Source: a virus (taxonomy: Duplodnaviria; Caudoviricetes). From it: a stretch of DNA of 64,000 bases. The notes under the pieces are model-generated. The model made no database searches, was not told where the DNA came from, and worked only from the letters and a program-made list of their open reading frames with translations. The position numbers were made by a program, and so were the translations under genes. Below, one piece after another: positions 1,926 to 44,715 of the stretch; the stretch's first letter is position 1, and every line of letters starts with the position of its first letter. Location: IMG/VR virus record IMGVR_UViG_3300028833_000094, positions 52,468 through 116,467 of that record. The stretch is one strand, 5' to 3'.

Positions 1926-1950
1926 GGGGCTATTCATTAGCCCCATACAG
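1926..1950 (+). repeat. Junction hairpin family, copy 1
   Basis: GGGGCTA-TTCAT-TAGCCCC-ATACAG. Confidence 0.6.
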
Positions 1951-1969
1951 AACCTTAAAAATAAGTACT

Positions 1970-3004
1970 ATGACTATAACAGAGTTTTCAAACCAGTTTG
2001 ATGTTCTTTATAATAACATTACTTCAAATCAGGCCCCTGGTCTGAATGAATATGAAAAAAGTGTATTCCTTACCAAGGCTCAAAATGAGATAGTGAAGAA
2101 CTATTTCACTGCCAATAGTAAAGGCAATAACATTGGGCAGGGCTTTGATGACTCTGCTAAGAGGCAGGCAGATTTCTCCTGCTTAATGAAAACAGCTCAT
2201 TGTGATCTTAATAGTAATCCTGGATCATCTAGTAGGTATATATATGCTTTTACATATAATAATTTCAGTCCTGCTACTACTATAAATTCTAGTGGCTCTG
2301 TTTATGCCATCTATAATGGGGAAATAGTAGAACCATATAATCATCCTATTCCTGCCTCTAAATATACTATAACAAGTGTAGATGCTTGGAATGATGTTAT
2401 TGTTGGTACTGGAAGTGGCGTAGAAGTAGAGTTTCACGGTCTATATTCAAGGATACATTATGTAGAAGGAGGTGCTGATAATAGTATTTCAGTAAGTCAG
2501 GTTCAAATAGATGTACTTAGTGTAGACAACAGAATTGATCCTAGAAGCAGTCTATATATATTTCCAGATAGTGTTTTTATTGTTATCAATGAAGCACTTT
2601 ATACATCAGATGGTAGTATTCTCCAAGTAGTTCCACTAAGATATGATGAATATTTAAGATTAATGTCTAAGCCTTTTAAACGCCCTTTAAAGAATCAGGC
2701 ATGGAGATTAATTAATTCTGGAACATCTGTTAATGATGTGAAGAATGCCGAAATCATCACTAATCTTGGTGTTTCTATTTCTACCTATATGATTAGGTAC
2801 ATCAGAAAACCAGAGCCGATTATATTAGCAAATCTTGATGGTTTGACTATTGAGGGGAAAGGAATTCCATCAGAATGTGAACTAGACTCAGTTCTTCATG
2901 AGGATATCCTTCAGAGGGCAGTAGAATTAGCTAAGGTTGCTTGGACAGCAACTGGTCAGGATAATGCACAGATGGTGCTTCAGGCAGGACAAAGGAGTGA
3001 ATAA
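1970..3004 (+). CDS. Tail ring (tail tubular) protein, paralog 1, with an inserted domain
   Basis: N-terminal MT..EFS..FD.L.N, EYEKS.FLTKAQ and C-terminal RY.RKP.PIIL..C.L...LH.DIL.RAV motifs, all shared with the next two genes. Confidence 0.78.
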   Translation: MTITEFSNQFDVLYNNITSNQAPGLNEYEKSVFLTKAQNEIVKNYFTANSKGNNIGQGFDDSAKRQADFSCLMKTAHCDLNSNPGSSSRYIYAFTYNNFSPATTINSSGSVYAIYNGEIVEPYNHPIPASKYTITSVDAWNDVIVGTGSGVEVEFHGLYSRIHYVEGGADNSISVSQVQIDVLSVDNRIDPRSSLYIFPDSVFIVINEALYTSDGSILQVVPLRYDEYLRLMSKPFKRPLKNQAWRLINSGTSVNDVKNAEIITNLGVSISTYMIRYIRKPEPIILANLDGLTIEGKGIPSECELDSVLHEDILQRAVELAKVAWTATGQDNAQMVLQAGQRSE

Positions 3005-3036
3005 TTGCAATATAATTGCCAATTAAATAACGTAAC
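3004..3036 (+). repeat. Junction hairpin family, copy 2
   Basis: ATTGCAA-TATAA-TTGCCAA-TTAAATAACG (imperfect stem). Confidence 0.6.
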
Positions 3037-3050
3037 TAAAAATACAGGAT

Positions 3051-3827
3051 ATGACAGTTAAGGAATTTAGTGATTTGTTTGATACTCTCCTTAATAGCTA
3101 TGCTACTACAGCATCATTTGGAGAAGATTCTTCTAAGGCAGATGTCACTTTGGATGAGTATGAGAAGTCTGTCCTCCTGACTCAGGCTCAAGATATGATA
3201 ATTAAGTCTTACTTCTATAGCAATCTTAATAGCCAAGGACAGGGTTTTGATGATAGTGAGAGAAGGCAGGTAGACTTTTCAAGTCTAATTAAGGTTGCAA
3301 CTCTTACACAATCAAGTAGCCAAACTAATATCTTTGATGAGAGGGGTATCTTGTTTGATATGCCTAAAAAGACTGGAGGAAGTACTGATGTACTATTTAT
3401 CCTTAATGAAAGACTCCTTGTTCCTACTGGAGAAGGGACAGCCAAAGACAGTTATGTTATTATCCCTCTGAACTATAAGGAGTATGACAGAGAGATGTCT
3501 AAAGCTTATGCTCAACCTTTGAAGAAGCAGGCATGGAGATTATTTCAGAATACTGCTACTGGTTTTGACGTGCAGTCAGAACTGATACCTATTTGGGATG
3601 TTGTAGATTCTCAGAATAAAAGTGGCATTGTTTATAAAATAAGATATGTCCAGCGTCCTGATCCAATTGTATTAGTAAATCTGCCCGATGGGCTTAGTAT
3701 TGATGGATTTAGTACAGAGCAATCTTGTACATTGAATCCTATCCTTCATGTGGATATCCTGAATAGGGCAGTGGAACTGGCACTGACTACCAGAGGAAGA
3801 GTTAGTAATAGAAGTCAAGGAGAATAA
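3051..3827 (+). CDS. Tail ring protein, paralog 2
   Basis: Same motifs (MTVKEFSDLFD, EYEKSVLLTQAQ, GFDDSERR, LHVDILNRAVELA). Confidence 0.78.
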   Translation: MTVKEFSDLFDTLLNSYATTASFGEDSSKADVTLDEYEKSVLLTQAQDMIIKSYFYSNLNSQGQGFDDSERRQVDFSSLIKVATLTQSSSQTNIFDERGILFDMPKKTGGSTDVLFILNERLLVPTGEGTAKDSYVIIPLNYKEYDREMSKAYAQPLKKQAWRLFQNTATGFDVQSELIPIWDVVDSQNKSGIVYKIRYVQRPDPIVLVNLPDGLSIDGFSTEQSCTLNPILHVDILNRAVELALTTRGRVSNRSQGE

Positions 3828-3833
3828 TAGACT

Positions 3834-4565
3834 ATGACAGTATCAGAGTTTTCAGACGGATTTGATGTCCTGGTTAACAGCTACAGGAGAATCAGGAGCT
3901 TTGACAACCAGGAGGCTACTGACAGTATCGAGTTTAATGAGTATGAGAAGAGTTTCTATCTTACCAAAGCTCAAGAGGAATTTGTCAGGAGTCTCTACAA
4001 TGGCAGGAATCCTTCAGGTCTGAGCTTTGAAGAAACTGAAGAACAGAGGAGACTTCTCTCCAATCTCATAGGAGAGGCACTTCTTGATAAGGAGGATAAT
4101 CCTGGAATCATTGGAATGAGGTTTGCTGAGTCAGCGGTCTTTACACTTGATCCTGACCTTTGGTTTATTACCTATGAAGAGGCAACAGTAGATGCTGGTA
4201 ATGGTAAATGTGGAGGTAACCTTTCTCAGGAAGTGGTTCCTGTTACTCAGGATGAATTCCATAGAATCAAGAAGAATCCTTTCAGGGGAATTAATAGGAG
4301 AAGGGCTCTAAGGCTTGACTTGTCAGATGACAGGGTTGAGATAGTCAGTAAGTATCCTATTACCAAATATTATGTAAGATATATGAAGAAACCTACTCCT
4401 ATCATTCTTGTGAGATTGCCGAACAATCTTGAGATAGAAGGAGACAGAGGGCCTTCAGAATGTATCCTCAATGATAAGCTTCATCAGGATTTACTTGACT
4501 TGGCTGTGAGGATGGCTTTAAGAAGTAAAGGTATATCAATACCTACAAATAGAAATAATGATTGA
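3834..4565 (+). CDS. Tail ring protein, paralog 3
   Basis: Same motifs (MTVSEFSDGFD, EYEKSFYLTKAQ, LHQDLLDLAVRMA). Confidence 0.78.
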   Translation: MTVSEFSDGFDVLVNSYRRIRSFDNQEATDSIEFNEYEKSFYLTKAQEEFVRSLYNGRNPSGLSFEETEEQRRLLSNLIGEALLDKEDNPGIIGMRFAESAVFTLDPDLWFITYEEATVDAGNGKCGGNLSQEVVPVTQDEFHRIKKNPFRGINRRRALRLDLSDDRVEIVSKYPITKYYVRYMKKPTPIILVRLPNNLEIEGDRGPSECILNDKLHQDLLDLAVRMALRSKGISIPTNRNND

Positions 4566-4627
4566 TAAAAGTCCTTTGGGCTAAGCCATAGCCACTGGAC
4601 AATGTTTAACTTAAATATTTTAATGTT

Positions 4628-5605
4628 ATGGCAAACTTTAGTGTAAATCAGGTACGACAGTTTTATGTACTGAATGGTGAGTATGCAGAGACAGTAACAG
4701 CTGCTTCCAATAATGGTACTATTGGTGGCCTGAAGGAAATTAAGGGTCTTCTTGGCCCAGAAGTTATGTTCTTCTATAAGGGAGCTGATAATGAGACTGT
4801 ACTTCCCAGCGACATTATTCCTCTGAAGAATATCACTTATGCAAAGGCTTACGCTGCTGCAGATTTGGCTACTAAGATGCGCAAGGTAAAGGTTACTCTT
4901 GCAATCACTCCTACTGCTGGTCAGGATTGTGTTCTGGGTATTAACTTCAAGAACTTCTTCAGCTCAGGTGATGCTTCTCAGTATTACAAGGATGCTGCTG
5001 TTCATGTAACCAGTGCAATGGTATCAGATGTCAAGGAATTCTATAAGGCAATGGTAGCTGAGCTTAATGCTTGCTTCAGCCGTGAGGATGGTGCAACTGC
5101 TACTACTAATCCTTATCTTACCTTCAGTGCTGGTACTGCAGGTTCAGAGGATGGTATCTATATTGAGGAGAAGCCTCAGGCTTGGAAGCTTGGTACCATG
5201 AAGGCTCGCAGGATTATGTTTGATGTTCTCCCTGGCACTGTTCTTGATAATGGTGATGATGTTATCTGGGGGACTGTAGCTGAGCAGACTCCTACCACTA
5301 CTGTTAACAATGGTCAGCAGATTGCAGACCTTGAGTGGTTCTGTGCAGGTGAGCGTGGTGACCAGTATAGGATGAAGGGATGGCCTAACTATGTACATAC
5401 TGACTATCTGGTAGATCCTACTCAGGCTTACAATGTATTGGAGATTCACTATGCATTCACTGATACTGGTGTAAATAGCTACCGTACTGAGAAAGAGATT
5501 ACCATTGTGGCAAAGACTGCAGCTCATCTGACTAGCTTCATTACAGCCTTCAATGCTTTGGATTCTGTAGAAGCTGCTGGATTTGCAATTGAAGGTCTTT
5601 CCTAA
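4628..5605 (+). CDS. Auxiliary capsid (decoration) protein, gp36-like
   Basis: MANFSVNQVRQFYV start and IADLEWFC.GERGDQYR..GWP motif; MCP-like codon usage; syntenic position; followed by a terminator. Confidence 0.7.
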   Translation: MANFSVNQVRQFYVLNGEYAETVTAASNNGTIGGLKEIKGLLGPEVMFFYKGADNETVLPSDIIPLKNITYAKAYAAADLATKMRKVKVTLAITPTAGQDCVLGINFKNFFSSGDASQYYKDAAVHVTSAMVSDVKEFYKAMVAELNACFSREDGATATTNPYLTFSAGTAGSEDGIYIEEKPQAWKLGTMKARRIMFDVLPGTVLDNGDDVIWGTVAEQTPTTTVNNGQQIADLEWFCAGERGDQYRMKGWPNYVHTDYLVDPTQAYNVLEIHYAFTDTGVNSYRTEKEITIVAKTAAHLTSFITAFNALDSVEAAGFAIEGLS

Positions 5606-5630
5606 GCTGTGGTAAAACCACAACCTACTG
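5606..5630 (+). repeat. Junction hairpin family, copy 3
   Basis: GCTGTGG-TAAAA-CCACAAC-CTACTG. Confidence 0.65.
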
Positions 5631-5637
5631 AGAAATT

Positions 5638-5675
5638 GGGGAGAGGGAGACTAATCCCTTTCCCCTTTAATTTTT
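5638..5675 (+). terminator. Intrinsic terminator
   Basis: GGGGAGAGGGA-GACTAA-TCCCTTTCCCC followed by a T-rich tail. Confidence 0.7.
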
Positions 5676-5695
5676 AACTTAAAATAGATAGAGCT

Positions 5696-6013
5696 ATGAA
5701 ATATTTGAAAGTGGTATGTTCCAATACTGCACCTAATGTAAGGGATGCTCTTTGGCTGAAGCCTACAGACGGTGGCTTTACTCTCTATGCTCTTAATGGT
5801 GGGTGGAAGCCTGTCAAGATGGAGGAAGGAGATGATGAGCCTAAGGCTGAGTATGATGCAGCAGGAGCTGCTGAAGCAGTTAAGACAGCAGTCATTGGTT
5901 CTGTGAAAGATAAGAAGACAGCCAATACTATCAATGGTGCCAAAGCCTATGCAAAGGATGTAGCAGATGCTGTGAAATCCTATGTGGATGAGAAATTGGC
6001 AAAGTTGGATTAA
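5696..6013 (+). CDS. Small putative virion fibre/vertex protein
   Basis: 105 aa; N-terminal AP....LW motif and a YDAAGAA...GAKAYA coiled segment of the kind seen in fibre proteins. Confidence 0.45.
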   Translation: MKYLKVVCSNTAPNVRDALWLKPTDGGFTLYALNGGWKPVKMEEGDDEPKAEYDAAGAAEAVKTAVIGSVKDKKTANTINGAKAYAKDVADAVKSYVDEKLAKLD

Positions 6014-6020
6014 TAAAGAA

Positions 6021-6048
6021 GTTGTCATATAATGACAACATAAATAAC
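6021..6048 (+). repeat. Junction hairpin family, copy 4
   Basis: GTTGTCA-TATAA-TGACAAC-ATAAATAAC. Confidence 0.7.
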
Positions 6049-6062
6049 AAAACGTAGAAGCA

Positions 6063-7101: not shown

Positions 7102-7173
7102 GCCTTACTAAGTAAGGTACTTAACTCAGTAAATAAAATCTTTAATACGGCTCAGGAGTATACTAAAATGTTG

Positions 7174-12200: not shown

Positions 12201-14077
12201 ACTTTTGGAAAGGAGTAGAAAAAGGGTTTGAGCATATAGCCAGAGACGAAAATCAGTTAGTTTGGACCTATAAAATGGGTATTGAGGAGAATACTATAGG
12301 AAAAGAAAATGAAAGCCTTACCATAAGTAAGGCAAGCATCAGGATGAAATATAAATCCACTCCACATGCAGTAATGTATTTAACGAGCCCATTAACTTCT
12401 TCTAATGCTAATTCTCTTTATCTTGCAGAACTATATAGATCGGGAAACTCTAGTACAGACTTTGGGGGAACTTCTCCTGATGCTATTCAAGCAAATATGT
12501 GGGTTCCTGCTGGCGAAGCAGTCTCATTAAATGATACTGACAATAGTGGAAGGGTACCATTCTATTATGAATGGGGAGATACTTGGTATCAGAGATATGA
12601 TTGCTTGAAAACATATCCCTTTACTCCAGAAGATGAAAATCAGATTGTAGAGATAGGCTCTTTCATGGTAGAGACTCATGTGAATATAGATGGAAGGTAT
12701 GATAGAAACAGGGGTCAAGATAGTAACTTGTATGTGAATCCTCAGAATTTTAATCTGATAAATCCTGTATATTCACAATTGGACAATTTCTTCTCCTACA
12801 AGATAATGGATGCTGATTTTTATAAGTTGAATGCTTTTCCTGCTACTGTAGCATGGACACTCCAAAAGAATAATGCTTCAGAGATAGATGCATGGACTAA
12901 TATTACATTATCTAATACATTAGACATGGATGGTACTATGGGACCAGTTACTTCTATTAATAGTAGTAATGATACGCTCTATTGCTTCCAGGAAAGAGGA
13001 GTTAGTCAGATAATGTTTAATTCCAGGGTACAGATTCCTGCTTCTGATGGTGTACCTATTGAAATCAGCAACAGCTACAAGGTAGATGGCAGTCGTGGTA
13101 TCAGTAGTACTGTAGGCTGTTATAATAAGTTTTCTATTACTAAGTCTCCTATAGGATTATATTTTATTGATGGAGTAGGAAGTACTTTATATCTCCTTCA
13201 AGGAAATCAGATGCAGAACATCAGTGATACTCATGGTATGGGTTATTGGTTCTCTCAACAAGATACCCAGAGACGCTGGATACCAAGTGGTGGAGAAGGT
13301 GGAGTCGATAGAAGAGCTCAGGGTATGAGGGTATGCTATGATAATGTGAATAATGACCTATATATGATTCCATATAATGGTAAAGCATTATGTTATTCAG
13401 AGCAATTGCAACAATTTGTATCTTTCTTTGACTACTATCCCTATGCTATTTTTAATCTTGGAAATAGTGTTCATGCTATTGGTGATGATGAGAATACTGT
13501 AGGTATGTGGAATCTATTTGAAGGAGAATACAATAAACTCATGGGAACCTTCTTCCCAAGCAGTATTACTTTTGTCAGCAATGCTGATATGCAGATGGAC
13601 AAGATATTCACCAATCTTGAAACAAGGACTGACTTCTATATGAATGGTGAATTGCAGCACATGCATTTCTTTGATACTATCAGAGTATGGAATGAATACC
13701 AGGATACTGATTGGCTAGATGAAAGTTTTATGGAGGAGCATACTACTCAACTTGAACATAAGTACTACCCGTATAGTTCATCTTCTATATCTTCGAATGT
13801 AAAGAAGAAATTTAGGATTTGGAGAATAGATATTCCAAGGGCTAAAAAATGGGTAGCTTATACACAGGCTGAAAAACAGGCTATGATAAATAGTGGTCAG
13901 TATACTTCTAATACAGTACCAGGTGGACATCTTATCAATATCAATGATAGGATTAGAAATACTTGGTGTAAGATTAAGCTTACCATGAATATTCCACCAA
14001 CAAATAGTGAGGAACTGGAAAACTTCCACTCTCATAATATGGAGATGCATGATATAAGTGTCATTTACTATGTTTAA
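9239..14077 (+). CDS. Tail muzzle/stabilization protein (gp44-like)
   Basis: 1612 aa; N-terminal GMQRD.S...A.NIR.T...TNEKG, VYWTDG.NQPR.INI, GDT.YQRYDCLKT and KKFRIWR.DIPR motifs. Confidence 0.82.
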   Translation: MKRVESHIFQGMQRDVSISKQQPQFLWDAVNIRLTAREGDTLMSITNEKGSVESGIYCTGSYMGHCVIGNNLVVFTTDDGYDYIYRITKMEEGFFKKKKLYGGSIGQPSLGFDPSYPLQTLGVYENEHIQKVYWTDGINQPRVINIVKDLLNSAATEYYNEKSFDFVPEMQLDDSIHVKKLSDSSGSFPSGVIQYAVTYYNKYGQQSNISCVSPLIPISFFGRAGSPEEKVSNSFRIVINNPDTTFEYLRLYSIFRSSLNGTPICKRVEDVKLGDGGTSGTYYKMETSGTIISNYFWVTGAYQATESNGDPFNQSGFVYTEHVPYVNNGSFFHIQKGSSTEHLVIKIKQQNNTYKYITWGDATEIFISKNSLAGGAGTAYYVVGADGMNETGDFRNAANLFISTEEIQYVEKRTVENVTITDNGSIGENIDPQELFYIGGDEIVAETIESKDGTLFLGNIVLKQAQIESLKSSIKNGVTITNNNTRQVSRAIALNSNNYKWGSSLNSTGADDYATNPAGFKYGEHYRLGVQFQYKNGKWSEPVYIPNMSGNTDIGSYICNENPEYNESSSSSSSEVYNIPCFKGVLSSDIRIALQSKGYKRVRGVVVFPTTSDRLILAQGILNPTVSCVTAHDQHSPDYQSSWFFRPWISSSFNNDSNILEGAVVEWEHNTKLFGFNDRGAEIQGLPVNYTNWSMMGNTINFGGGPFSPVYFDNVNIGNKNNPKYVTVRQDLADSVFYVDQQYVTMHSPEFEFEDSLKNLDFIETSLRKRGYVQFNANVGDIFIETSTPPIGKSSTGFVRKVMNWGGTGACRRLCAGLFYNDWLVDENVNDNKNLYAEFPHQGYEVGFMVYPWNKSGSLNNDCNRPAEAGVRSAVLKRKIISNMLYSRQTSFVSSSDIPMPSTSTPKLFDLDQIGLVKLGGNTNYYGNIDTLLGAMAPFGSIISTGENIWKINKSDYNDMKEYGSGQYKPTEDYMSYSTHIFNSRKNYFWKGVEKGFEHIARDENQLVWTYKMGIEENTIGKENESLTISKASIRMKYKSTPHAVMYLTSPLTSSNANSLYLAELYRSGNSSTDFGGTSPDAIQANMWVPAGEAVSLNDTDNSGRVPFYYEWGDTWYQRYDCLKTYPFTPEDENQIVEIGSFMVETHVNIDGRYDRNRGQDSNLYVNPQNFNLINPVYSQLDNFFSYKIMDADFYKLNAFPATVAWTLQKNNASEIDAWTNITLSNTLDMDGTMGPVTSINSSNDTLYCFQERGVSQIMFNSRVQIPASDGVPIEISNSYKVDGSRGISSTVGCYNKFSITKSPIGLYFIDGVGSTLYLLQGNQMQNISDTHGMGYWFSQQDTQRRWIPSGGEGGVDRRAQGMRVCYDNVNNDLYMIPYNGKALCYSEQLQQFVSFFDYYPYAIFNLGNSVHAIGDDENTVGMWNLFEGEYNKLMGTFFPSSITFVSNADMQMDKIFTNLETRTDFYMNGELQHMHFFDTIRVWNEYQDTDWLDESFMEEHTTQLEHKYYPYSSSSISSNVKKKFRIWRIDIPRAKKWVAYTQAEKQAMINSGQYTSNTVPGGHLININDRIRNTWCKIKLTMNIPPTNSEELENFHSHNMEMHDISVIYYV

Positions 14078-15150: not shown

Positions 15151-15268
15151 TAGAATTTTAGGAGTTCCATAATATTTACTATATAATGTGTCTAAAGGGA
15201 GTATAAGTAATTGACTTATATTCCCTTAGTACTTTAAATATCTAGGGTTGGAAATAGTGGTAATCTTT

Positions 15269-15276
15269 TATTTTTG
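15269..15276 (+). promoter_or_regulatory. -7 promoter element
   Basis: TATTTTTG(CA), 20 nt before the ATG at 15297; TTG about 19 nt upstream. Confidence 0.6.
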
Positions 15277-15296
15277 CAGAAAATAGATGCATCGAG

Positions 15297-18874: not shown

Positions 18875-21292
18875 ATGAGTTACTTATATAATGGTTTTCC
18901 ACCTCAGCAGTTGTCTTTCAGCAGGAAGAATAAAGCCTGGAGAAAGAAGTGTGTGGATTTTGGTGACAACCATAGTATCATGCATCATCATGTAGCCAGG
19001 AAGTCATGGTATGGCATGAAGATTAACTATGACTTGCTGAATGGTATTCTTCACATGGAAGACCTGAAGGCATTGGTAAATCCTTATGGACTAAATGCTT
19101 CCTTTATACCTGATAAAATCCAACACTACAGTATCATCAATTCCAAGTTGAATGTACTCAGGGGAGAAGAAGCTAACAGGTTGTTTGACCCAAGGGTAGT
19201 GGTGACTAATCCAAGTGCCATTACCTTGATGGAAGAAGAAAAGAACCGTCAGGTAAATATAGCTCTTCAGCAATTGATTCAGGATACTTCCCAGAGTGAG
19301 GAGGATTTCCAAAGAGAGTTAGACAGGTTGAATACCTATTTCAAGTATCAGTACCAGGACAAGAGGGAAGTAGAGGGAAACTATTTCCTTAACCACTACA
19401 GGAAAGAACTGGAGATAGACCAGAAATTCAACCAGGGATTTGTAGATGGCTATGCTGTAGGAGAAGAAGCCTATCAGTGTGATATTATTGGAGGAGAGCC
19501 TACTTTTGAGAAGATAAATCTCTTGGAGATGAGGGTCCTGATGAGTGGCTATTCCAACAAGATAGAAGATGCTGACATGATTATCCTGGAAGGCTATAGG
19601 AATCCTGGTTCTGTAATAGATGCCTACTATGATGTGCTTTCAGCCAAAGATATCAAAGCCATTGAGGAAGGTTCAGGAAGTGTATATAGCAATGCATCAG
19701 ACTCTATGGATAACATAGATGCAAGAGTAGGTAACCCACTCAGGAGTCTGGTAGGACTTGACTTCCTTGGAAACCATTGGGAAGCAGGAGAAAGGGTGAT
19801 GACACCTGCAGACCTATTTGCAGATGATAATATGAGTACACTGACTCCCTATGACATGAATGGTAATGTCAGGGTATTGAAGGTATACTGGAAGTCAAGA
19901 AGAAAGATTAAGAAAGTAAAGAGCTATGACCCTGTAACAGGAGAAGAAGAATTCAATTTCTATCCTGAGACCTATTACTGTGACCCTGATAAGGGAGAAG
20001 AAGAACAGATATTCTGGGTAAATGAAGCATGGGAAGGAACTAAGATTGGTGCTGATATCTATGTAAACATGAGACCCAGGCCTGTACAGTATAACTCTAT
20101 GAGTAATCCTTCAAGATGTCACTTTGGTATTGTGGGCAGTATCTATTCAACCAATGGATATGAGCCTTTCTCTATGGTGGATATCATGAAGCCCTATGCC
20201 TATCTCTATGACATTATTAATGACAGGTTGAATAAGACCTTGGCAAAGAATGTAGGTAAGGTTATCAGGTTAGACTTTGCTAAAGTTCCTAAGGGATGGG
20301 ATGCAGATAAATGGCTGTACTATATCAATGTGAATGGTGTAGCTGTAGAGAACTCATGGAATGAAGGAGATGTAGGAGCAGCTACAGGAAGGCTTGCAGC
20401 CAGTCTGAATAATGCTTCCAGTGGTGTGATTGATGCTTCATTAGGTAATGAGATTCAGAGTTATATCTCCATGCTAGAATGGATTAGCAATAAAATAGGA
20501 GACTTGTCAGGTATCTCCAGGCAGAGAGAAGGACAGATTTCCAACAGGGAGACTGTAGGAGGAGTAGAAAGGGCTACCCTTCAGAGTTCACACAGTACCC
20601 AATGGCTGTTTACCTATCATGATAGTGTGAAGAAGAGAGCTTTGGAATGCTTCCTTGAAACAGCCAAGATAGCCTATAAGGGAAGGAAAATCAAGTTTGA
20701 CTACATCATGAATGATGGTTTCAAGAAGACCATTGAGATTGATGGAGATGACTTTGCAGAATGTGACTATGGTCTGGTAGTAGATTTGGGCAATGATGTA
20801 CAGGAGCTTAACCAGAACCTTGGACAGCTTGCTCAGGCAGGTCTGCAGAATGATAAGATGAACTTCTCTACCCTGATAAAGATATATACTACCAAGAGTG
20901 TATCTGAGCGCATGAGACTCATTGAGGCTTATGAGGAGCAGGCAATGATGCAGCAGCAGCAACAGCAGCAAATGCAACAGCAGCAGTTTGAACAGCAGTT
21001 GCAGCAGCAGGCACAGCTTGAACAGGCTAAGGCTGAAAGAGAGTATCAGATGCATCAGGAAGATAATGAGACTAAGCTGCTTGTTGCTGAGATTAATTCT
21101 CAGGCAGAGGCCCAGAGATTTGCCATGATGAACCATGACAATGATGAGGCCAATGCTATTGAAAGGGAAAAGATTGCTGAAAATGCAAGGCAGTTTGATG
21201 AGAAGCTTTCCCTTGATAAGAAGAAGCAGGCAGATGATGCAAGACTTAAGGAGAAACAGATTAATGTCACTAAGCAGAAGAAATCATCATAA
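18875..21292 (+). CDS. Portal protein
   Basis: 805 aa; FP.QQLSF..K...WRK.CVD, IQHY.I.NSKLNVL.GEE, W.NE.WEGTKIG and GISRQREGQ...RETVGGVERA motifs of crAss-like portals; C-terminal Q-rich coiled coil. Confidence 0.85.
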   Translation: MSYLYNGFPPQQLSFSRKNKAWRKKCVDFGDNHSIMHHHVARKSWYGMKINYDLLNGILHMEDLKALVNPYGLNASFIPDKIQHYSIINSKLNVLRGEEANRLFDPRVVVTNPSAITLMEEEKNRQVNIALQQLIQDTSQSEEDFQRELDRLNTYFKYQYQDKREVEGNYFLNHYRKELEIDQKFNQGFVDGYAVGEEAYQCDIIGGEPTFEKINLLEMRVLMSGYSNKIEDADMIILEGYRNPGSVIDAYYDVLSAKDIKAIEEGSGSVYSNASDSMDNIDARVGNPLRSLVGLDFLGNHWEAGERVMTPADLFADDNMSTLTPYDMNGNVRVLKVYWKSRRKIKKVKSYDPVTGEEEFNFYPETYYCDPDKGEEEQIFWVNEAWEGTKIGADIYVNMRPRPVQYNSMSNPSRCHFGIVGSIYSTNGYEPFSMVDIMKPYAYLYDIINDRLNKTLAKNVGKVIRLDFAKVPKGWDADKWLYYINVNGVAVENSWNEGDVGAATGRLAASLNNASSGVIDASLGNEIQSYISMLEWISNKIGDLSGISRQREGQISNRETVGGVERATLQSSHSTQWLFTYHDSVKKRALECFLETAKIAYKGRKIKFDYIMNDGFKKTIEIDGDDFAECDYGLVVDLGNDVQELNQNLGQLAQAGLQNDKMNFSTLIKIYTTKSVSERMRLIEAYEEQAMMQQQQQQQMQQQQFEQQLQQQAQLEQAKAEREYQMHQEDNETKLLVAEINSQAEAQRFAMMNHDNDEANAIEREKIAENARQFDEKLSLDKKKQADDARLKEKQINVTKQKKSS

Positions 21293-21312
21293 AAATGATG
21301 AAATAAATAACG
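21283..21312 (+). repeat. Junction hairpin family, copy 5 (6-nt loop variant)
   Basis: ATCATCA-TAAAAA-TGATGAA-ATAAATAACG. Confidence 0.5.
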
Positions 21313-32606: not shown

Positions 32607-32704
32607 TTGTTGTTTTTTTGAAAGTTAGTTAGTAATGTGGTGATTGATTAGTTTTTCATTAATTGATTAAATTTTCATTAGTTAGAAATTAGATTAAACA
32701 TTGT

Positions 32705-32736
32705 AAAAGGGAGGCTGTGAAGTTTCCCTTTTTTAT
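32705..32736 (+). terminator. Intrinsic terminator after the lysis cassette
   Basis: AAAAGGGAGGCT-GTGA-AGTTTCCCTTTTTT. Confidence 0.75.
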
Positions 32737-32739
32737 TTA

Positions 32740-32764
32740 GCTGCGATATAATCGCAACATACTC
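32740..32764 (+). repeat. Junction hairpin family, copy 6
   Basis: GCTGCGA-TATAA-TCGCAAC-ATACTC. Confidence 0.65.
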
Positions 32765-32823
32765 TATGTATTATCCTGTTAACTTGCTGAGAGCTAGCAG
32801 GTTTTTTGTATTTATTGGCATTG

Positions 32824-32855
32824 TTTGAGGAGCCTTTTATTTGTGCCTATCTTTG
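32824..32855 (+). promoter_or_regulatory. Complete Bacteroidota promoter (-33 TTTG, -7 TATCTTTG)
   Basis: TTTG at 32824-27, 20-nt spacer, TATCTTTG(CA) at 32848-55. Confidence 0.75.
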
Positions 32856-32876
32856 CAATGTTCTTGCAAGGATAAT

Positions 32877-32901
32877 GCTGTAGTTAAACTGCAGCCTACT
32901 G
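32877..32901 (+). repeat. Junction hairpin family, copy 7
   Basis: GCTGTAG-TTAAA-CTGCAGC-CTACTG. Confidence 0.65.
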
Positions 32902-32938
32902 ACAAATTAATTTTTTAACCGATTAAAATTTTAGAACA

Positions 32939-33919
32939 ATGGCACAAAATGAAGGTGTTTATGTTTTCCCAGATGCAATGGCAAAAGCTTCTGGTATTGA
33001 TCCTGGTCTGCTTGCACTGTTGAACCAGAATGGTGGTTTTGGTGGTAATGGCAACTGGATTTGGATTCTCTTCCTCTGGTTCCTTTATGGTAACAATGGT
33101 TGGGGAAATAATGGTTTTGGCAGTAACAATGGTACTGGTTATCTTGCCAATCAGATTTCTAACTCAGAAGGTCGTGATTTACTGTTGCAGGCTATTAATG
33201 GCAGAGCTGATGCTGCTGCTCAGTTGGCAAGTATTACTAACACATCTGTAGAGACTGTGAAGAATGGTATCTTCTCTCTACAGAATTCCATCAACCAGGT
33301 AGGTAATCAGGTAGGTCTCTCTGGAATGCAGACTATCAATGCTATCCAGGCTGGTGATGCTGCCCTTGGAAGACAGTTGTGTGAGTGCTGCTGCAATATG
33401 AGGTATGACCTTTCTCAGCAGACCAATGCTTTACAGGCTCAGGCAGCTAATAACTTTGCTGCTTCACAACTCCAGGCTGCTCAGAATCAAGCTGCTACAC
33501 AGCTTCAGATGGCTCAGATTGAAAGTGCAGACCAGCTTGCTGTATGTCAGCAGACTAATGCCCTCTCTTCTCAGGCTGCCAATAACACCAATAATATCCT
33601 TGGTGCTATTCAGGCCCAGAATGCTATGATTACCAAGGAATTCTGTGACCTTAAGGAGCGTGAACTCCAGAATAAGATTGATACACAGGGTGACATCATT
33701 ACCCAGTTGAGGAATCAGATTTCCAATGACCATCAGACTCTGCAATTCAATGCTGCCTTCCATGCACTGGATGATAAGGTAGATGCTATTGCTGCCAAGC
33801 AGCCAAATACTGTACCAGTAACTTGGCCTAATCTTGTGGCAGTGAACAACACTCCTTATGTTGGTGGTGGATTCAATCCTTGGGGATATGCATCAGGTGG
33901 TACTAGCTATTGGGGATAA
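32939..33919 (+). CDS. Q/N/G-rich protein with a hydrophobic segment and a CECCC motif
   Basis: 326 aa: GGFGGNGNW-IWILFLWFLY-GNNGWG, Q/A-rich helices, CECCC, C-terminal coiled coil; high-expression codons. Confidence 0.8.
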   Translation: MAQNEGVYVFPDAMAKASGIDPGLLALLNQNGGFGGNGNWIWILFLWFLYGNNGWGNNGFGSNNGTGYLANQISNSEGRDLLLQAINGRADAAAQLASITNTSVETVKNGIFSLQNSINQVGNQVGLSGMQTINAIQAGDAALGRQLCECCCNMRYDLSQQTNALQAQAANNFAASQLQAAQNQAATQLQMAQIESADQLAVCQQTNALSSQAANNTNNILGAIQAQNAMITKEFCDLKERELQNKIDTQGDIITQLRNQISNDHQTLQFNAAFHALDDKVDAIAAKQPNTVPVTWPNLVAVNNTPYVGGGFNPWGYASGGTSYWG

Positions 33920-33936: not shown

Positions 33937-34272
33937 ATGGCAAGATTTCCATATCAGTATGCCAATATCAATGGCATCCCATGTATCAAAACCCAATCTG
34001 TAGCAGTATCAGACACAGCTGTTACCTTTAAGTTTGCTCCTGACTTTGACGGAAGACCTTTCAGAGGATTGATTCTGGTCTATATCTCTGAGGCTATTCC
34101 TGAAGGAACTACAACCACTCTGCCTATACAGTTCTCTATGGCTGGTATCACCAGTACACTGACTGCAGCAGGTGGAGCCAATGTAACAGTAGCAGACTTA
34201 CCTGGAACAGGAATCTATCTGGTTTACTTTGACAGGTGGGCAGATACATTACAGTTAATGAGTAATATCTAG
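33937..34272 (+). CDS. Hypothetical beta-rich protein
   Basis: 111 aa; second gene of the operon. Confidence 0.7.
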   Translation: MARFPYQYANINGIPCIKTQSVAVSDTAVTFKFAPDFDGRPFRGLILVYISEAIPEGTTTTLPIQFSMAGITSTLTAAGGANVTVADLPGTGIYLVYFDRWADTLQLMSNI

Positions 34273-35491: not shown

Positions 35492-35516
35492 GTAGTCACA
35501 TAGTGACTACCTACTG
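35492..35516 (+). repeat. Junction hairpin family, copy 8
   Basis: GTAGTCA-CATAG-TGACTAC-CTACTG. Confidence 0.65.
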
Positions 35517-35522
35517 TAAATT

Positions 35523-39630: not shown

Positions 39631-39654
39631 ACTGAATTTTAAATTTTATAAATT

Positions 39655-40488: not shown

Positions 40489-40496
40489 GTTCAGTT

Positions 40497-40838
40497 ATGG
40501 CAACATACCGAAATAAGAATGATGATATCATATTCTATGGTGGAGAGTTCAAGCTGAAAGTCAGTATGGACACTATAGATGGGTATGATATGTCTGATGA
40601 TGGTATTGAGTTTAGTTGTACTTTCTCTACAGGTAACGGTGATTATACTCTTACTAAATCTGAAATGATTCCTGTAGAGGATGATCCTACTACTTATATA
40701 GCTCCTCTAGATAGCACTATATTAGGCAGGGGAACTCTTACTGTCAAATATGAAGTAGATATCCCAGATACTGACTTTACTGATGATAATCACAGGCATG
40801 AGGTAGTGGAGATTCCAACTAAAATCAAGATTAAATGA
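40497..40838 (+). CDS. Small Ig-like/adaptor virion protein
   Basis: 113 aa, acidic and beta-rich; in the fibre block. Confidence 0.5.
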   Translation: MATYRNKNDDIIFYGGEFKLKVSMDTIDGYDMSDDGIEFSCTFSTGNGDYTLTKSEMIPVEDDPTTYIAPLDSTILGRGTLTVKYEVDIPDTDFTDDNHRHEVVEIPTKIKIK

Positions 40839-41152
40839 GTTGTATAACTACAAAAGTAACAAGAGCCTCCGAGCCTTGTGATGTTCAAGTCAGCAAGACT
40901 GAAGGTATAGGAGTAGTGGTGACGGCTGTTATTTCAGCCGTCACTGCTGCTGTTACTTTTGTTTCCTCTCTTATAGTCAAGGCTACTAGTGTTCCAGGAG
41001 TGAATACTGAGGTAGCCTTAGAGGAGAGAGTGAATGTAGAGGTAGGCATCATCTGCACTGTCAAGCTCTCTGAGGAATTAGAGATGTGGTGGTGTGATGG
41101 ATGGAAAGCATTGTGGAACAATAATCTGAAGATATTATGGCGAGAGGAATAA
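40835..41152 (+). CDS. Hypothetical fibre-associated protein
   Basis: 105 aa, V/T-rich beta repeats; coupled overlaps with both neighbours. Confidence 0.5.
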   Translation: MSCITTKVTRASEPCDVQVSKTEGIGVVVTAVISAVTAAVTFVSSLIVKATSVPGVNTEVALEERVNVEVGIICTVKLSEELEMWWCDGWKALWNNNLKILWREE

Positions 41153-41319
41153 GTATAGGGGATGTAACTAACACCTTGGATACCTTTAATGGCAAAGAAA
41201 AGATTCCTGTGTCTTCTGGGGAAACAGACCCTCAGGTAGTGACTACAGGAAAGCTAAAGGAATATATCAATGATGATGCTGAAATTCCTATAGATGTATT
41301 AGCAAGAATATTAACTTAA
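41137..41319 (+). CDS. Small fibre-adaptor-like protein
   Basis: 60 aa; I.D......G.E.IP N-terminal motif of fibre bases. Confidence 0.5.
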   Translation: MARGISIGDVTNTLDTFNGKEKIPVSSGETDPQVVTTGKLKEYINDDAEIPIDVLARILT

Positions 41320-41334
41320 TAAAATAGATAGATT

Positions 41335-42039
41335 ATGGGACATTATTTAGGACCAACAGGTTTAGGATACCTTTGGGGCAAAATTAAAGATTATGCAAAA
41401 ATTATTACTACTAGTGGCACTACTAAGGTTGTTATCGGGGATAATGAGGTAACTATTCCTTCTGGAATATCCCCTTATACCAGTAATCCAGCAATGAATG
41501 GAAGTGCTTCAGCAGGTAGCTCTGATTTATTCTCAAGAGGAGACCATGTTCACCCTACTGATACTTCAAGAGCTGCTGCAAGTACAGCTGTAACAGGAGT
41601 GGCTTATGACATTACCAATAACAAAATCACTAAGACTATTAATGGTAATACTACTGATGTAGTTACTGCTGCCTCCATTGTAAGTGGTGGAGGAGGTGTA
41701 CTAAGCTCTTCTGTGGGTGTAGCAAGTGGTGTTTGTCCTTTGGACTCCAGTGGTAAGGTTCCTTCTGATAAACTTCCTGGCTATGTGGATGATGTTGTAG
41801 AAGCATATCCTATTAGTGGAGCTACTGAATTGGCACAAGGATGGCTCAGCTTAACTGCTGGTGGTTCCGCATTAAGTCCTGAAACTGGAAAGATTTATGT
41901 GCTCATGGCTGCTTCTACAAACTATGCTGCTAATACTGAATTTAGATGGGGAGGAAGCACTTATGTACAGCTTAATGACAGTGGCTGTAGTGAGATGAGT
42001 ACTGATGAGATGGATATTGCAACAAATGATTGGGCATAA
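41335..42039 (+). CDS. Tail fibre segment protein
   Basis: 234 aa; SRGDHVHP, GVCPLD.SGKVP...LP.YVDDV and RWGGSTYV fibre motifs. Confidence 0.65.
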   Translation: MGHYLGPTGLGYLWGKIKDYAKIITTSGTTKVVIGDNEVTIPSGISPYTSNPAMNGSASAGSSDLFSRGDHVHPTDTSRAAASTAVTGVAYDITNNKITKTINGNTTDVVTAASIVSGGGGVLSSSVGVASGVCPLDSSGKVPSDKLPGYVDDVVEAYPISGATELAQGWLSLTAGGSALSPETGKIYVLMAASTNYAANTEFRWGGSTYVQLNDSGCSEMSTDEMDIATNDWA

Positions 42040-42041
42040 CT

Positions 42042-42383
42042 ATGGCTAAATTTATAGGACCAACAGATTTAACTTATCTGTGGACTAAGATTAAAAACTA
42101 TATAGCAAATAGTTCTCCAGTGACTTCAGTTAATAATCAGACTGGAGATGTTACTATTGCTACAGGAGAAGCTAATGTGATAGAGAATGTATCTTTTAAT
42201 GGGACTGCTGCAACTGTTACTAATAAAATAGCAGCTATTACAGCTACTATTCCTACAGTTCCTTCTAATATAGTCACTGGCTTAAATAGTTCTGGAGTTG
42301 CTGCAGCATATACTATTAAAGTAGTAGACTCATTACCTGGCACAACTGACCCTTCAACCATTTATCTTGTAACAGGCTCATGA
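42042..42383 (+). CDS. Tail fibre segment protein
   Basis: ATG at 42042; PVTSVN.QTGDV repeat; N-terminus paralogous to that of the previous gene. Confidence 0.6.
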   Translation: MAKFIGPTDLTYLWTKIKNYIANSSPVTSVNNQTGDVTIATGEANVIENVSFNGTAATVTNKIAAITATIPTVPSNIVTGLNSSGVAAAYTIKVVDSLPGTTDPSTIYLVTGS

Positions 42384-43084
42384 TTAATATTGCAGGTAAT
42401 GACATAATAGATATAGCCGTGGGTAGCACTCCTATTGAGAAGGCTTACATAGGCTCTACGCTTGTGTGGGAGAAAAATGCTGCTACCGTAGAAGATGCTG
42501 ATGGGAATCTTTACTATATTAAGAATTATATAGAAACATGTGTAGGAACAAAGTATTGTAGCATTGGAATAAAAACAAATGAAACAGATTACTTTGAAAC
42601 TAAAATTTATCTCCCATCCACAGCAAGAAATTATCCTTGTGGCGGATATAGTAGTAACAATAGTAATGACTATGGTCTAAAATGCTATAGTAGTTCTTTA
42701 AGATTTGCCTATGATACTGGTACTATTTATTACTCTAAATCGTATGGCAACCAAACGTTTACTTTCAAAGAAGAATACAATCCAGATAATTCTACTATGT
42801 ATTTTTATATATATAATAGTAGTGGGGCACAAGTATTTAGTTCCTCTACAGCCAAAAGAAGTGGAACAACATCAAAAGAATTCTTAATCGGAGATTATAA
42901 TGGATCTAGTTATGGTTCAGAAGATGGAACTAAATTTTATTATTTTAAATTTTGGAGAAATCAAACACTTGTAAGAGATATGATTCCTGTACAAAGTGTA
43001 GATACGGGAGAATACGGATTCTTTGATAAAGTGAATTTAAAAATATATTATAGTAGTGGTTCAAGTTCTTTTACTGGGGGATAA
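42380..43084 (+). CDS. Putative distal receptor-binding protein
   Basis: N-terminal I..I.VG...I.KAY.G..LVW; Y/S/N-rich beta domain ending LVRDMIPV...GFFDKV. Confidence 0.55.
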   Translation: MINIAGNDIIDIAVGSTPIEKAYIGSTLVWEKNAATVEDADGNLYYIKNYIETCVGTKYCSIGIKTNETDYFETKIYLPSTARNYPCGGYSSNNSNDYGLKCYSSSLRFAYDTGTIYYSKSYGNQTFTFKEEYNPDNSTMYFYIYNSSGAQVFSSSTAKRSGTTSKEFLIGDYNGSSYGSEDGTKFYYFKFWRNQTLVRDMIPVQSVDTGEYGFFDKVNLKIYYSSGSSSFTGG

Positions 43085-43135
43085 TTAAAATATAATTTTT
43101 GCTTCCATAAGTTAGTAAATATATAGTTTATTCAG

Positions 43136-43170
43136 TTAGGGGGTGTTGTGAAAACACCTCCTTTCTTTTT
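43136..43170 (+). terminator. Intrinsic terminator after the fibre block
   Basis: AGG(A/G)GGTGTT-GTGA-AAACACCTCCT followed by a T-tract. Confidence 0.7.
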
Positions 43171-43256
43171 AGGTAATGTATTATTCCTATAATATACTGA
43201 TTCTCAAATACTTCTATATTATACTGGTAATGTTTCACCTTCTTGTAGAATATTCA

Positions 43257-43264
43257 TACCTTTG
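43257..43264 (+). promoter_or_regulatory. -7 promoter element
   Basis: TACCTTTG, 21 nt before ATG 43286. Confidence 0.55.
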
Positions 43265-43285
43265 TACAGTTAAATTATTAAAGCC

Positions 43286-43624
43286 ATGACTAATATAGAA
43301 GAATTAAAAAAGAAGCAGCCTGAATACAAGGAGAGTCTTCAGGAAGTGATTGATTTTATCAACAGCAAGGAATACTTTGACCTTCCCCAGAGGGAAAAGA
43401 ATCTGGTAAGTCAGTATAGGATGGGACTTGAGATGTCTATTAATGCATTGAGTAACCTTACCTATGGAGATATGTTTACCTTTGATGCAGGAACTAACAT
43501 GATATTGCCTTTCCTGCTAAGTGGTATGACAAGTGGTTTTGGTCCATCTTCAGGAGCAGAGTACCTTAAGAAAGAATTAGAGGAAGATGATACTCATCAG
43601 GAACTTACTGACCACGCAGTATGA
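43286..43624 (+). CDS. Hypothetical helical protein
   Basis: 112 aa; helical-hairpin pattern FINS..Y.DL...EK.L...Y. Confidence 0.55.
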   Translation: MTNIEELKKKQPEYKESLQEVIDFINSKEYFDLPQREKNLVSQYRMGLEMSINALSNLTYGDMFTFDAGTNMILPFLLSGMTSGFGPSSGAEYLKKELEEDDTHQELTDHAV

Positions 43625-43755
43625 ATCAGGATCAGGCAATCAACAGACTGGCACAGATAAGCGGAAAATCAAGAAAAGAAGTGATAGAAGCTATAAAAAA
43701 GATAAGTGCCTTACCAGAAGTCCAGAAGGAACTAAAGAAGAGTAGGAAACGATGA
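43621..43755 (+). CDS. Small basic protein (not in the ORF track)
   Basis: ATGA overlap with the previous stop; MNQDQAINRLAQISGKSRKEVIEAIKKISALPEVQKELKKSRKR. Confidence 0.55.
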   Translation: MNQDQAINRLAQISGKSRKEVIEAIKKISALPEVQKELKKSRKR

Positions 43756-43842
43756 GTGTTAATATTCTTAAGGAATACTTTAAGTCGGGGAGAAGCTTAG
43801 AGTATTCTTTTTATTTTTGTCAGCAATAAAATATAGAAGAGT

Positions 43843-44124
43843 ATGTTTGAATTTAGGAGAATGGTTGTGAGATATCTCAGGGAGATTGCTGATAAGATTG
43901 AAGTAGGAACTTCAGAGATTTCAGAGTCTCAGGCTATGGATATTCTCAGTGTGGTAGCCCATGAAGCTATGAGTAAGGAACAGGCTTGTAACTATCTGAA
44001 TCTTTCTAGAAGCAGGTTTGATGACTTGGTAAGAGAAGGAAAACTTCCTAAAGGAAAGAAGAGGGTAGGGTTCAAGGAACTTGTATGGTATAAGGATGTA
44101 CTGGATATGTGTAAGAGGAAGTGA
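43843..44124 (+). CDS. Excisionase/AlpA-like HTH DNA-binding protein
   Basis: MSKEQACNYLNLSRSRFDDLVREGKLPKG winged-HTH motif; -7 element TATTTTTG at 43812. Confidence 0.7.
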   Translation: MFEFRRMVVRYLREIADKIEVGTSEISESQAMDILSVVAHEAMSKEQACNYLNLSRSRFDDLVREGKLPKGKKRVGFKELVWYKDVLDMCKRK

Positions 44125-44156
44125 TTGCAATAAAATTGCAATATAAATAACGAAAC
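44124..44156 (+). repeat. Junction hairpin family, copy 9
   Basis: ATTGCAA-TAAAA-TTGCAAT-ATAAATAACG. Confidence 0.7.
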
Positions 44157-44157
44157 A

Positions 44158-44189
44158 TTTGGTAATTAAAATATTAATCTTTAAATTTG
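44158..44189 (+). promoter_or_regulatory. Complete Bacteroidota promoter
   Basis: TTTG at 44158-61, 20-nt spacer, TAAATTTG(CA) at 44182-89. Confidence 0.7.
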
Positions 44190-44198
44190 CAGAAAGTT

Positions 44199-44333
44199 AT
44201 GACATCAAGACGTGCAAAGCCTGTTGCAGCAAAAGCAGGTGTAACTAAAAACCCAAAGAGAAGATATGGAAGTGGTGGTAAAGCCATCAAGGGAAAGAAG
44301 AACTCCTATAAATGCGGAGGAAAGCTTAAGTAA
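44199..44333 (+). CDS. 44-aa basic peptide with two YxxGGK motifs (not in the ORF track)
   Basis: MTSRRAKPVAAKAGVTKNPKRRYGSGGKAIKGKKNSYKCGGKLK; first ATG after the promoter. Confidence 0.65.
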   Translation: MTSRRAKPVAAKAGVTKNPKRRYGSGGKAIKGKKNSYKCGGKLK

Positions 44334-44700
44334 CAAGAAGTTACTTTACAAGTCTGTGCTGTATTCAGTGAAGATTATTCCTATGTTGATAGCTGGGATA
44401 TATCTGCTGAATACAGTACTTTCTTATTGTGGTATAGACTGGGAAGGTTTTTCCTATATTGTACAGTTCTTGTTTATAGGATTTATCTATCTCGCATCTA
44501 TTACATTCAGATTCTGTGTATATCATAGATTGTTTATACACTATATTCTTTTGACTTTGGTACTGAATATTATAGATTATCATTGGGGCATACCATTATC
44601 AGACAGAAATTTGTTTCTGATGTATATGATAATTACTGGAGTGTTTTTATTCTTAATATTGTACTTTCATCAGAAGTGTAGGAGAGGGAGGCTGCAATAG
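44266..44700 (+). CDS. Four-TM membrane protein overlapping the peptide gene
   Basis: Four hydrophobic segments; F.FC.YHR motif. Confidence 0.65.
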   Translation: MEVVVKPSRERRTPINAEESLSNKKLLYKSVLYSVKIIPMLIAGIYLLNTVLSYCGIDWEGFSYIVQFLFIGFIYLASITFRFCVYHRLFIHYILLTLVLNIIDYHWGIPLSDRNLFLMYMIITGVFLFLILYFHQKCRRGRLQ

Positions 44701-44715
44701 AATTGCAGCATACAG
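44691..44715 (+). repeat. Junction hairpin family, copy 10
   Basis: GCTGCAA-TAGAA-TTGCAGC-ATACAG. Confidence 0.65.

Follow-up and report, generated by a model that had tools for sequence, protein, structure and literature searches.

A one-sided hairpin family of fixed polarity in a crAss-like phage, in other phages and in rumen Prevotellaceae: a probable REP-like repeat

RESULTS

Hairpin copies and their genomic setting

The 116,467-bp crAss-like phage record IMGVR_UViG_3300028833_000094 carries a dispersed family of short hairpins, each followed on its 3′ side by a conserved unpaired tail, and it is this family that is analysed here. The window under study is the 64,000-nt stretch corresponding to bases 52468-116467 of the record; positions below are window positions unless they are marked as genome positions. 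The record encodes a major capsid protein of the Crass_capsid family (E = 6.7e-187) and a portal protein, as well as ring, auxiliary capsid, hub and cargo proteins, the flanking genes being named after their Pfam matches. Megablast of 12 kb against deposited phages gave no match, a Rfam scan of the window gave no match at the gathering score, and no description of the hairpin element was found in the literature on crAss-like phages or by searching with the letters of the motif. The original prediction, which was based on the letters of the window, had listed ten such hairpins, and all ten were found at the coordinates given there. They are listed below together with a weaker, intragenic copy.

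998..1025, + strand: weaker copy inside the gene at 896-1906, with 6/7 stem positions paired, loop TAGAA and tail CTACAC (covariance model E = 0.015); kept in the close relative L132
1926..1953, + strand: hairpin with tail ATACAGAAC, between an unknown gene and a gene for tail ring protein 3/4
3004..3031, + strand: hairpin with a bulged C and tail TAAATAAC; begins on a stop codon, between two ring 3/4 paralogues
5606..5633, + strand: hairpin with a C.A mismatch at stem position 2 and tail CTACTGAG; adjoins the stop codon of the auxiliary capsid gene, with a canonical terminator directly 3′
6021..6048, + strand: hairpin with tail ATAAATAAC, 5′ of the gene for tail hub protein A
21283..21311, + strand: hairpin whose loop contains the portal stop codon, with tail ATAAATAAC, 5′ of the gene for cargo protein 2
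32740..32767, + strand: hairpin with a C.A mismatch at stem position 2 and tail ATACTCTAT, flanked by two canonical terminators
32877..32904, + strand: hairpin with tail CTACTGAC, in the leader 3′ of a host-type TTTG / TAnnTTTG promoter
35492..35519, + strand: hairpin with tail CTACTGTAA, occupying the 31-nt gap between two small genes
44124..44151, + strand: hairpin with tail ATAAATAAC; begins on a stop codon
44691..44718, + strand: hairpin whose loop contains a stop codon, with tail ATACAGAG, located where the + strand arm ends

Six of the ten copies touch or enclose the upstream stop codon, as had been claimed, and the + arm copies located just 3′ of stop codons keep the leader open for 20-35 nt ahead of the following start. 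The claim that the hairpins are not intrinsic terminators also stands, given that no T-run follows any copy and that separate canonical terminators occur in the same intergenic regions. Many + arm operons have signals of their own, namely promoters of the host type (TTTG, then TAnnTTTG) as well as canonical hairpin-plus-T terminators. Promoters of the Bacteroidota type were seen in long intergenic regions, e.g. at 32607-32938, 43085-43285 and 15151-15296, and canonical terminators 3′ of the major capsid gene (799-895) and of the auxiliary capsid gene (5637-5680). Three copies of the family, at 5606, 32740 and genome position 50316, have a canonical terminator directly on their 3′ side. A minus-strand terminator adjoins the copy at genome position 24108, and a promoter scan in its vicinity gave nothing beyond chance.

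The fold and the reality of the family

The predicted structure, a 7-bp stem closed by a 5-nt loop, was present as a stem-loop in all ten copies but turned out to be drawn slightly too short. That is, the first and last bases of the loop also pair (T-A, or C-G in two copies), so that seven of the ten copies form an 8-bp stem with a 3-nt loop. When folded as single-stranded DNA, 10/10 copies adopted the hairpin, at -4.5 to -8.1 kcal/mol and with z-scores of -2.6 to -6.5. The core hairpin measures 19-20 nt, and the unit including the tail 28-32 nt. The C.A mismatch said to be shared at stem position 2 was seen at 5606 and at 32740, and 28/33 positions agree between the 3004 copy and the 44124 copy, again as described.

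The hairpins are in clear excess over chance. In intergenic segments of at least 25 nt, 11 perfect 7-bp/5-nt hairpins were counted, compared to 1.1 +/- 1.05 (maximum 5) in 300 mononucleotide shuffles, and genome-wide 12 of the 29 perfect hairpins are intergenic although intergenic DNA makes up 9% of the genome. A covariance model built from the ten copies, a check that the original prediction had called for, recovered them with E = 4e-7 to 2e-4, and the 644 kb of related crAss-like loci that were scanned gave a single match below E = 1. Half-sites vary between copies yet remain complementary: over 21 copies pairing reaches 95%, with two G.T and three C.A combinations in 147 cells. The strong covariation score is partly circular, since members were selected for pairing, and template switching at palindromes would yield apparent compensatory changes without selection. 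Taken together, these results support a family that is read through its fold, consisting of a hairpin plus a fixed one-sided tail.

A 7-5-7 inverted repeat that is dispersed through the genome and located near stop codons could also be a double-stranded operator for a dimeric DNA-binding protein, e.g. a phage repressor, comparable to the stoperators of mycobacteriophage L5. However, half-sites that vary while staying complementary fit a fold and not a fixed half-site, the conserved tag is one-sided, and the element also occurs in many unrelated phages and hosts (see below), which leaves the operator explanation very improbable. An integron attC site, a Xer site or another recombinase core site was considered separately and ruled out by size and by the variable half-sites.

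All copies of the genome lie on one strand

Searches of the whole genome yielded nine copies beyond the ten, one in the window (the intragenic copy at 998) and eight upstream of it. The covariance model, at E = 0.01-0.11, detected seven of these on the + strand and gave no match on the - strand; direct scans added two weaker ones, bringing the total to 19 copies, all of which are on the + strand. Their tails begin with ATAC (complement GTAT) in seven cases and with CTAC (complement GTAG) in five. Six of the 19 copies are located in the left gene arm, where every gene runs on the minus strand, and are thus antisense to genes; four of them lie in intergenic gaps, where the tail adjoins the stop codon that ends the upstream minus-strand gene, and two are intragenic. 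The tails of these minus-arm copies match + arm tails letter for letter over 8-10 nt, TAAAAGAC being common to genome positions 16727 and 50316, and ATACTCTAT to genome position 27515 and window position 32740. Because their tails repeat those of the + arm, the minus-arm copies must be true members of the family. Furthermore, among the 12 perfect intergenic hairpins, TA occupies tail positions 2-3 in nine cases when read on the + strand versus one when read on the - strand; perfect palindromes are detectable on both strands, so this test is free of strand ascertainment. With 19/19 copies on the + strand and six of them antisense, orientation therefore tracks the DNA strand and not transcription. 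GC and AT skew at fourfold sites, analysed for the direction of phage replication, were uninformative, the variation within arms being as large as that between arms.

This arrangement bears on the original prediction, which allowed for a system acting on sense mRNA. That such a system is specific to the phage and works on sense mRNA is not supported, given the copies that are antisense to genes and those found in non-crAss phages, in host chromosomes and in housekeeping genes. A more permissive version would be an RNA cis-element of late operons, acting by processing, stabilisation or protein binding and setting the ratios of structural proteins, with the antisense and host copies as by-products. 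Such a role would suit the + arm, where copies separate the ring, auxiliary capsid, hub, portal and cargo genes, whose products are needed in very different amounts, and where they stand right after stop codons with an open leader before the next start. It would not suit the six antisense copies here or the approximately half of the copies that are antisense in other phages; moreover, G.U pairs are not in excess over C.A, and a stabiliser would be redundant at the three copies that lie just 5′ of full terminators. We consider this version unlikely, also in view of the comparisons with relatives and hosts described below.

A second proposal concerned hairpin promoters for a virion RNA polymerase (vRNAP). 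In phage N4, the vRNAP, a T7-like polymerase, uses three template-strand hairpins ahead of early genes. The element studied here resembles these promoters in having a short stem and a 3-nt loop (8 bp/3 nt in its longer form) that would be read as a folded single strand, and TA occurs at a fixed distance past the stem, where it could provide a pyrimidine/purine start. In addition, a 3095-aa protein encoded at 49478-58765 on the - strand contains a DFDxD motif at residue 2109, by virtue of which it would fit a crAss-type vRNAP; Pfam has no family for this protein, nor for two others of 2138 and 1526 aa. Unlike the three N4 promoters, however, the element is present in 19 copies, among them late, antisense and coding ones, its carriers include bacterial chromosomes and phages that have no crAss genes, and the polymerase in question is of the DFDxD type. 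The copies of the late structural arm are a further difficulty, as vRNAP makes early transcripts; so are the three copies immediately followed by terminators and the host-type promoters that these operons already possess. In the crAss-like phage phi14:2, genes of the middle and late classes are transcribed by the host RNA polymerase, and vRNAP transcripts have no common upstream motif (10.1101/2020.03.07.982082). As a promoter set of the N4 type, the proposal fails, and a promoter function of the hairpins for vRNAP is highly unlikely.

Conservation and turnover among relatives

Crass-like relatives whose portal proteins are about 50-82% identical show 0-3 model matches per record (mostly 0-2), compared to 17 matches at E <= 0.11 in the studied genome, and at the portal junction no such hairpin was found in about 60 relatives. 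At two other junctions the element has been kept. At the 1926 junction, L009 and L011 show a hairpin whose stem differs and whose tail is CTAC, and the 6021 junction of L131, L133 and L134 has one with a compensatory stem change and a ATACAGAAC tail.

Closer relatives differ in which copies they carry. L132, parts of which reach about 97% identity, is without the 3004 and 5606 copies, and homology breaks at the 3004 stop codon. At L132:7529-7562, corresponding to window 6018-6051, the loop is exactly reverse-complemented (TATAA to TTATA) within an otherwise nearly identical stretch, a change that reads as a mutation of the template-switch type. In L197, which is 91-96% identical, the 32740 stem has decayed through two disruptive changes, the 32877 copy is identical, and the 35492 copy differs at three positions, the stem change among them keeping the pairing as a wobble. 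Judging from these alignments, the differences among close relatives in presence, absence and decay of copies look like the turnover typical of mobile repeats. L197 also contains, at L197:2053-2727 and on the opposite strand, an HNH/NUMOD4 endonuclease gene between the orthologues of 32939-33919 and 33937-34272; the studied genome has no such gene at that place.

For an RNA element, the hairpins kept with compensatory changes at the 1926 and 6021 junctions would count in favour, whereas the tolerated inversion of the loop and the absence of the element from most junctions in relatives would count against. A hairpin acting at the DNA level is to be favoured over one acting in RNA because G.T pairs are scarce and because the loop is inverted in a close relative.

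The same family in other phages

The ten-copy model also matched other phage records, at E values down to 1e-6, and the element that it finds outside the studied genome reads GYTGCGA, 5 nt, TCGCARC, followed by ATAC-N-G-R-AC. A pattern search of IMG/VR, derived from one copy type, returned 41 sites, 19 of them fully paired versus about 2.6 expected. The unit measures about 28-32 nt. Its stem of 7-8 bp has a conserved foot (GYTG...CARC), the loop is short and purine-rich, and an unpaired tag stands on one side. The tag is ATAC or CTAC, usually continued by N-G-R-A-C; on the other strand, GTAT or GTAG immediately precedes the palindrome. The 19 copies of the studied crAss-like phage are an AT-shifted set of this unit.

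When whole records were scanned with the model, 16 matches were obtained in G011, 15 in G012, 5 in G013, 11 in G014 and 2 in G015. Counts obtained with the strict pattern, split by strand, were 17:0, 0:8, 0:4 and 8:1 for G011-G014, respectively. In these carrier phages, the genes nearby point in both directions, and roughly half of the copies lie antisense to them. The crAss capsid was not found in the G011-G014 records, with the studied genome serving as positive control.

The polarity was also examined independently of the tag, by searching for the strand-symmetric core GTTGCGA-N5-TCGCAAC. The tag was present on exactly one side in 47/94 cores and on both sides in 0/94, with chance at about 1% per side, and the tagged copies were co-oriented in 8/8 loci holding at least two of them. 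Tail positions that were not targeted by the search were conserved as well, with G at +6, A at +8 and C at +9, which gives ATAC-N-G-R-A-C.

Copies in host chromosomes and a possible link to replication

More than 120 loci with the element were found in metagenome-assembled genomes (MAGs) of rumen Prevotella, Prevotellaceae and Bacteroidales. Five host genomes hold 3-31 copies each, spread over many contigs, with 0 for a reversed-pattern control, whereas 103 of the 121 host genomes sampled from the family have no copy. Host copies are both intergenic and intragenic, and those in frame occur in the genes for IleS, LeuS (two species), UvrA, a peptidase M16, a GH92 enzyme and a rhamnogalacturonan lyase; the LeuS gene of a third species has a diverged hairpin at the same position. 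The presence of the same unit inside host enzymes is a further point against an RNA element of late operons.

A Chi- or KOPS-like polar motif was ruled out by the 103/121 sampled host genomes that are without the element. CRISPR-repeat (clustered regularly interspaced short palindromic repeat) mimicry was likewise rejected, the 63-nt periodic host locus being a plain tandem repeat with identical 'spacers' and no array being present among the >120 host loci. The locus (L332:2835-3055, in a Prevotella MAG) comprises 3.5 tandem copies of a 63-nt unit made up of the element and about 40 nt of G+C-rich sequence.

On the complete 2.92-Mb chromosome G105, copies lie on the + strand at 0.009-0.71 Mb and on the - strand at 1.61-2.21 Mb, a switch between the two halves that a replication-linked element would be expected to show. 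GC skew is noisy in the 33 samples of 20 kb taken; negative values predominate between 0.4 and 1.4 Mb, and positive ones over the arc leading from 1.8 Mb to 0.3 Mb, so the origin may tentatively be placed near 1.5-1.7 Mb and the terminus near 0.3-0.4 Mb. On this provisional map, the tail strand would be the leading-strand template, and the tag strand the lagging-strand template, at 8/9 independent loci. A segment of about 7 kb with three elements is present twice in G105, in inverted orientation (L396:9041-16196, at 9-16 kb, and L397:5746-13422, at 2,130-2,138 kb), probably as two copies of a mobile element or prophage.

Genes of the Y1_Tnp family are present in 4/5 multi-copy host genomes versus 22/116 of the others (hypergeometric p ~0.0075). 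Some host Y1 genes are embedded in arrays of other G+C-rich palindromes (L546:1800-2920 and 12460-13330; L377:1308-1954). These arrays look like true REPtrons of other families of repetitive extragenic palindromic (REP) elements within the same Prevotellaceae genomes.

DISCUSSION

A probable REP-like invasive repeat

The reading that we prefer, with a probability of roughly 60%, is that the hairpins are copies of a REP-like invasive palindromic repeat common to rumen Prevotellaceae and to many unrelated phages of theirs. In REP elements with their REP-associated tyrosine transposases (RAYTs), as in the IS200/IS605 insertion sequences, a folded single strand is handled by a strand-specific HUH/Y1 enzyme. 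The family itself and its spread, polarity and placement are observations. As regards the enzyme responsible, the handling of single-stranded DNA and the mode of replication of the family studied here, we infer the following. The unit would fold when its own strand is single-stranded at the replication fork, and a strand-specific enzyme acting on single-stranded DNA, most likely a host HUH/Y1 nuclease of the RAYT type, would copy or retain the folded unit. Strand-specific handling would give one polarity per replicon or replichore, in which case phage DNA would be made mostly by one-directional replication, e.g. rolling circle. Copies would survive at the least harmful sites, i.e. just past stop codons, or in frame in variable protein loops. 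A secondary effect of the sense copies on late mRNAs, at the RNA level, is possible.

Published REPs are located mainly downstream of genes and sometimes inside repair or housekeeping genes, vary in copy number (Di Nocera et al. 2013, PMC3733652), and are often transcribed and affect mRNA stability (PMC3733652), the last property being one that an RNA cis-element could equally claim. The GTAG-tagged REPs are the closest in form to the studied family: both are palindromes of 20-40 nt that carry a conserved, unpaired tetranucleotide on one end, both lie mostly just 3′ of genes with some intragenic copies, including ones in repair and housekeeping genes, and in both the stems covary and copy number varies widely between related genomes. 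In contrast to the GTAG-tagged REPs, the studied family occurs in Bacteroidota, it mostly carries GTAT as the tag, past which another conserved block follows, its copies are mostly single instead of being inverted pairs, and its polarity is absolute within a replicon. Host copies are also few (0-31), with 10-100 times more per kb in phages.

Three other systems of mobile or dispersed palindromes invite comparison. The single-strand transposition of IS200/IS605 is reportedly coupled to replication (work attributed to Ton-Hoang et al. 2010). The likeness would lie in the recognition of a hairpin on one strand and, tentatively, in an orientation that is tied to fork direction, with a strand switch between replichores; however, IS200/IS605 elements have two different ends and tnpA, whereas the studied unit consists of one hairpin, about 30 nt in size, and its carrier phages have no transposase gene. 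The Rickettsia palindromic elements (RPE), said to have been described by Ogata et al. in 2000, resemble the family in being palindromic repeats found between genes and translated in frame in working genes. Measuring 100-150 bp, RPEs add a peptide segment, whereas the studied unit encodes about 9-10 residues and replaces a loop of equal length in LeuS. RPEs have been grouped with the CGTC-tagged REPs (PMC3733652). Finally, the PeSL motifs of T4-type phages are also dispersed intergenic stem-loops at gene-swap boundaries (PMC2839356, PMC4122927), comparable to the break in homology with L132 at the 3004 element, but they are composite terminator/promoter units with a known role in expression and are gene-oriented; the studied family has no promoter boxes and no T-run, keeps to one strand and is also present in the host.

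Several observations weigh against a REP-like parasite of the host. In LeuS, the unit replaces a variable 10-residue loop of equal length, with no added length, and no clean pair of filled and empty sites was found. The replichore assignment comes from one complete genome with a noisy skew, and one of its nine loci, in the duplicated mobile segment, misfits. No REPtron was found for the family, that is, no RAYT gene is flanked by it: the palindromes that flank the Y1 genes in G016, G018 and G105 are different, GC-rich ones, and the phage genomes contain no Y1 transposase or tnpA. Loops in phages are purine-rich on the tail strand. Copies per kb are 10-100 times higher in phages than in hosts, which would be odd for a parasite of the host and could mean that the element benefits the phages. 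Lastly, hairpin and tag persist at two junctions in relatives that share only about 54-60% identity in the neighbouring proteins, and such retention in diverged relatives suggests selection for function.

The latter observations would be accommodated by a polar single-stranded DNA signal used by the phages themselves, with the host copies as spill-over. Unrelated Prevotella phages would then have converged on, or exchanged, such a signal, be it a mark for lagging-strand priming or a shield against host nucleases. At the complementary-strand origin of phage G4, a hairpin stands beside the primase start trinucleotide, and priming in the manner of this origin would be one candidate function, loading of a fork protein or protection of exposed single strands being others. 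A signal of this kind would agree with the single strand occupied per replicon in at least five phages, with the strand switch between chromosome halves, with the density in phages, and with the invariant TA directly 3′ of the hairpin and the second conserved block further along the tail, as well as with the junctions that keep the element in diverged relatives. In addition, the crAss-type vRNAP prefers single-stranded templates in vitro (10.1101/2020.03.07.982082). On the other hand, related crAss-like phages have 0-3 copies, mostly 0-2, so the element is dispensable, its spacing is irregular with no copy in the 19-kb right arm, and copies decay in close relatives. The 103/121 host genomes without it, the copies inside housekeeping genes and the lack of a known partner protein point the same way, and we regard a phage-owned signal as rather unlikely.

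Annotation of the hairpins as crAss-specific regulatory sites or as vRNAP promoters should be avoided. Under the REP-like reading, a type of repeat that is known mainly from Proteobacteria is now met in rumen Bacteroidota, in phages far more densely than in bacteria and on one strand. The repeat that the studied phage and rumen Prevotellaceae have in common can serve as a signal linking virus and host. The polarity would offer a handle, obtainable from sequence, on the direction of replication in phages that have not been cultured, those of the crAss-like group among them. If an enzyme is found, the family would constitute a compact model system for the transposition of single-stranded DNA into the genomes of viruses. 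If instead the element is a polar signal, its orientation would report the direction of replication, which here would be one-directional, from right to left across both gene arms.

Additional features near the hairpins

The leader of the major capsid gene lies just upstream of the window. Its junction is without a copy in the studied genome and holds a family element, with tail ATACAG, in the relative G006. A different structure is present there in the studied phage, namely a hairpin with a 10-bp stem and a conserved A/T-rich leader ahead of the major capsid gene (genome 51704-51756; also L204:1521-1590). At the other end of the + arm, 3′ of its last element and ahead of the convergent terminator region, window 44736-44828 contains a 30-codon open reading frame for a hydrophobic, membrane-like peptide.

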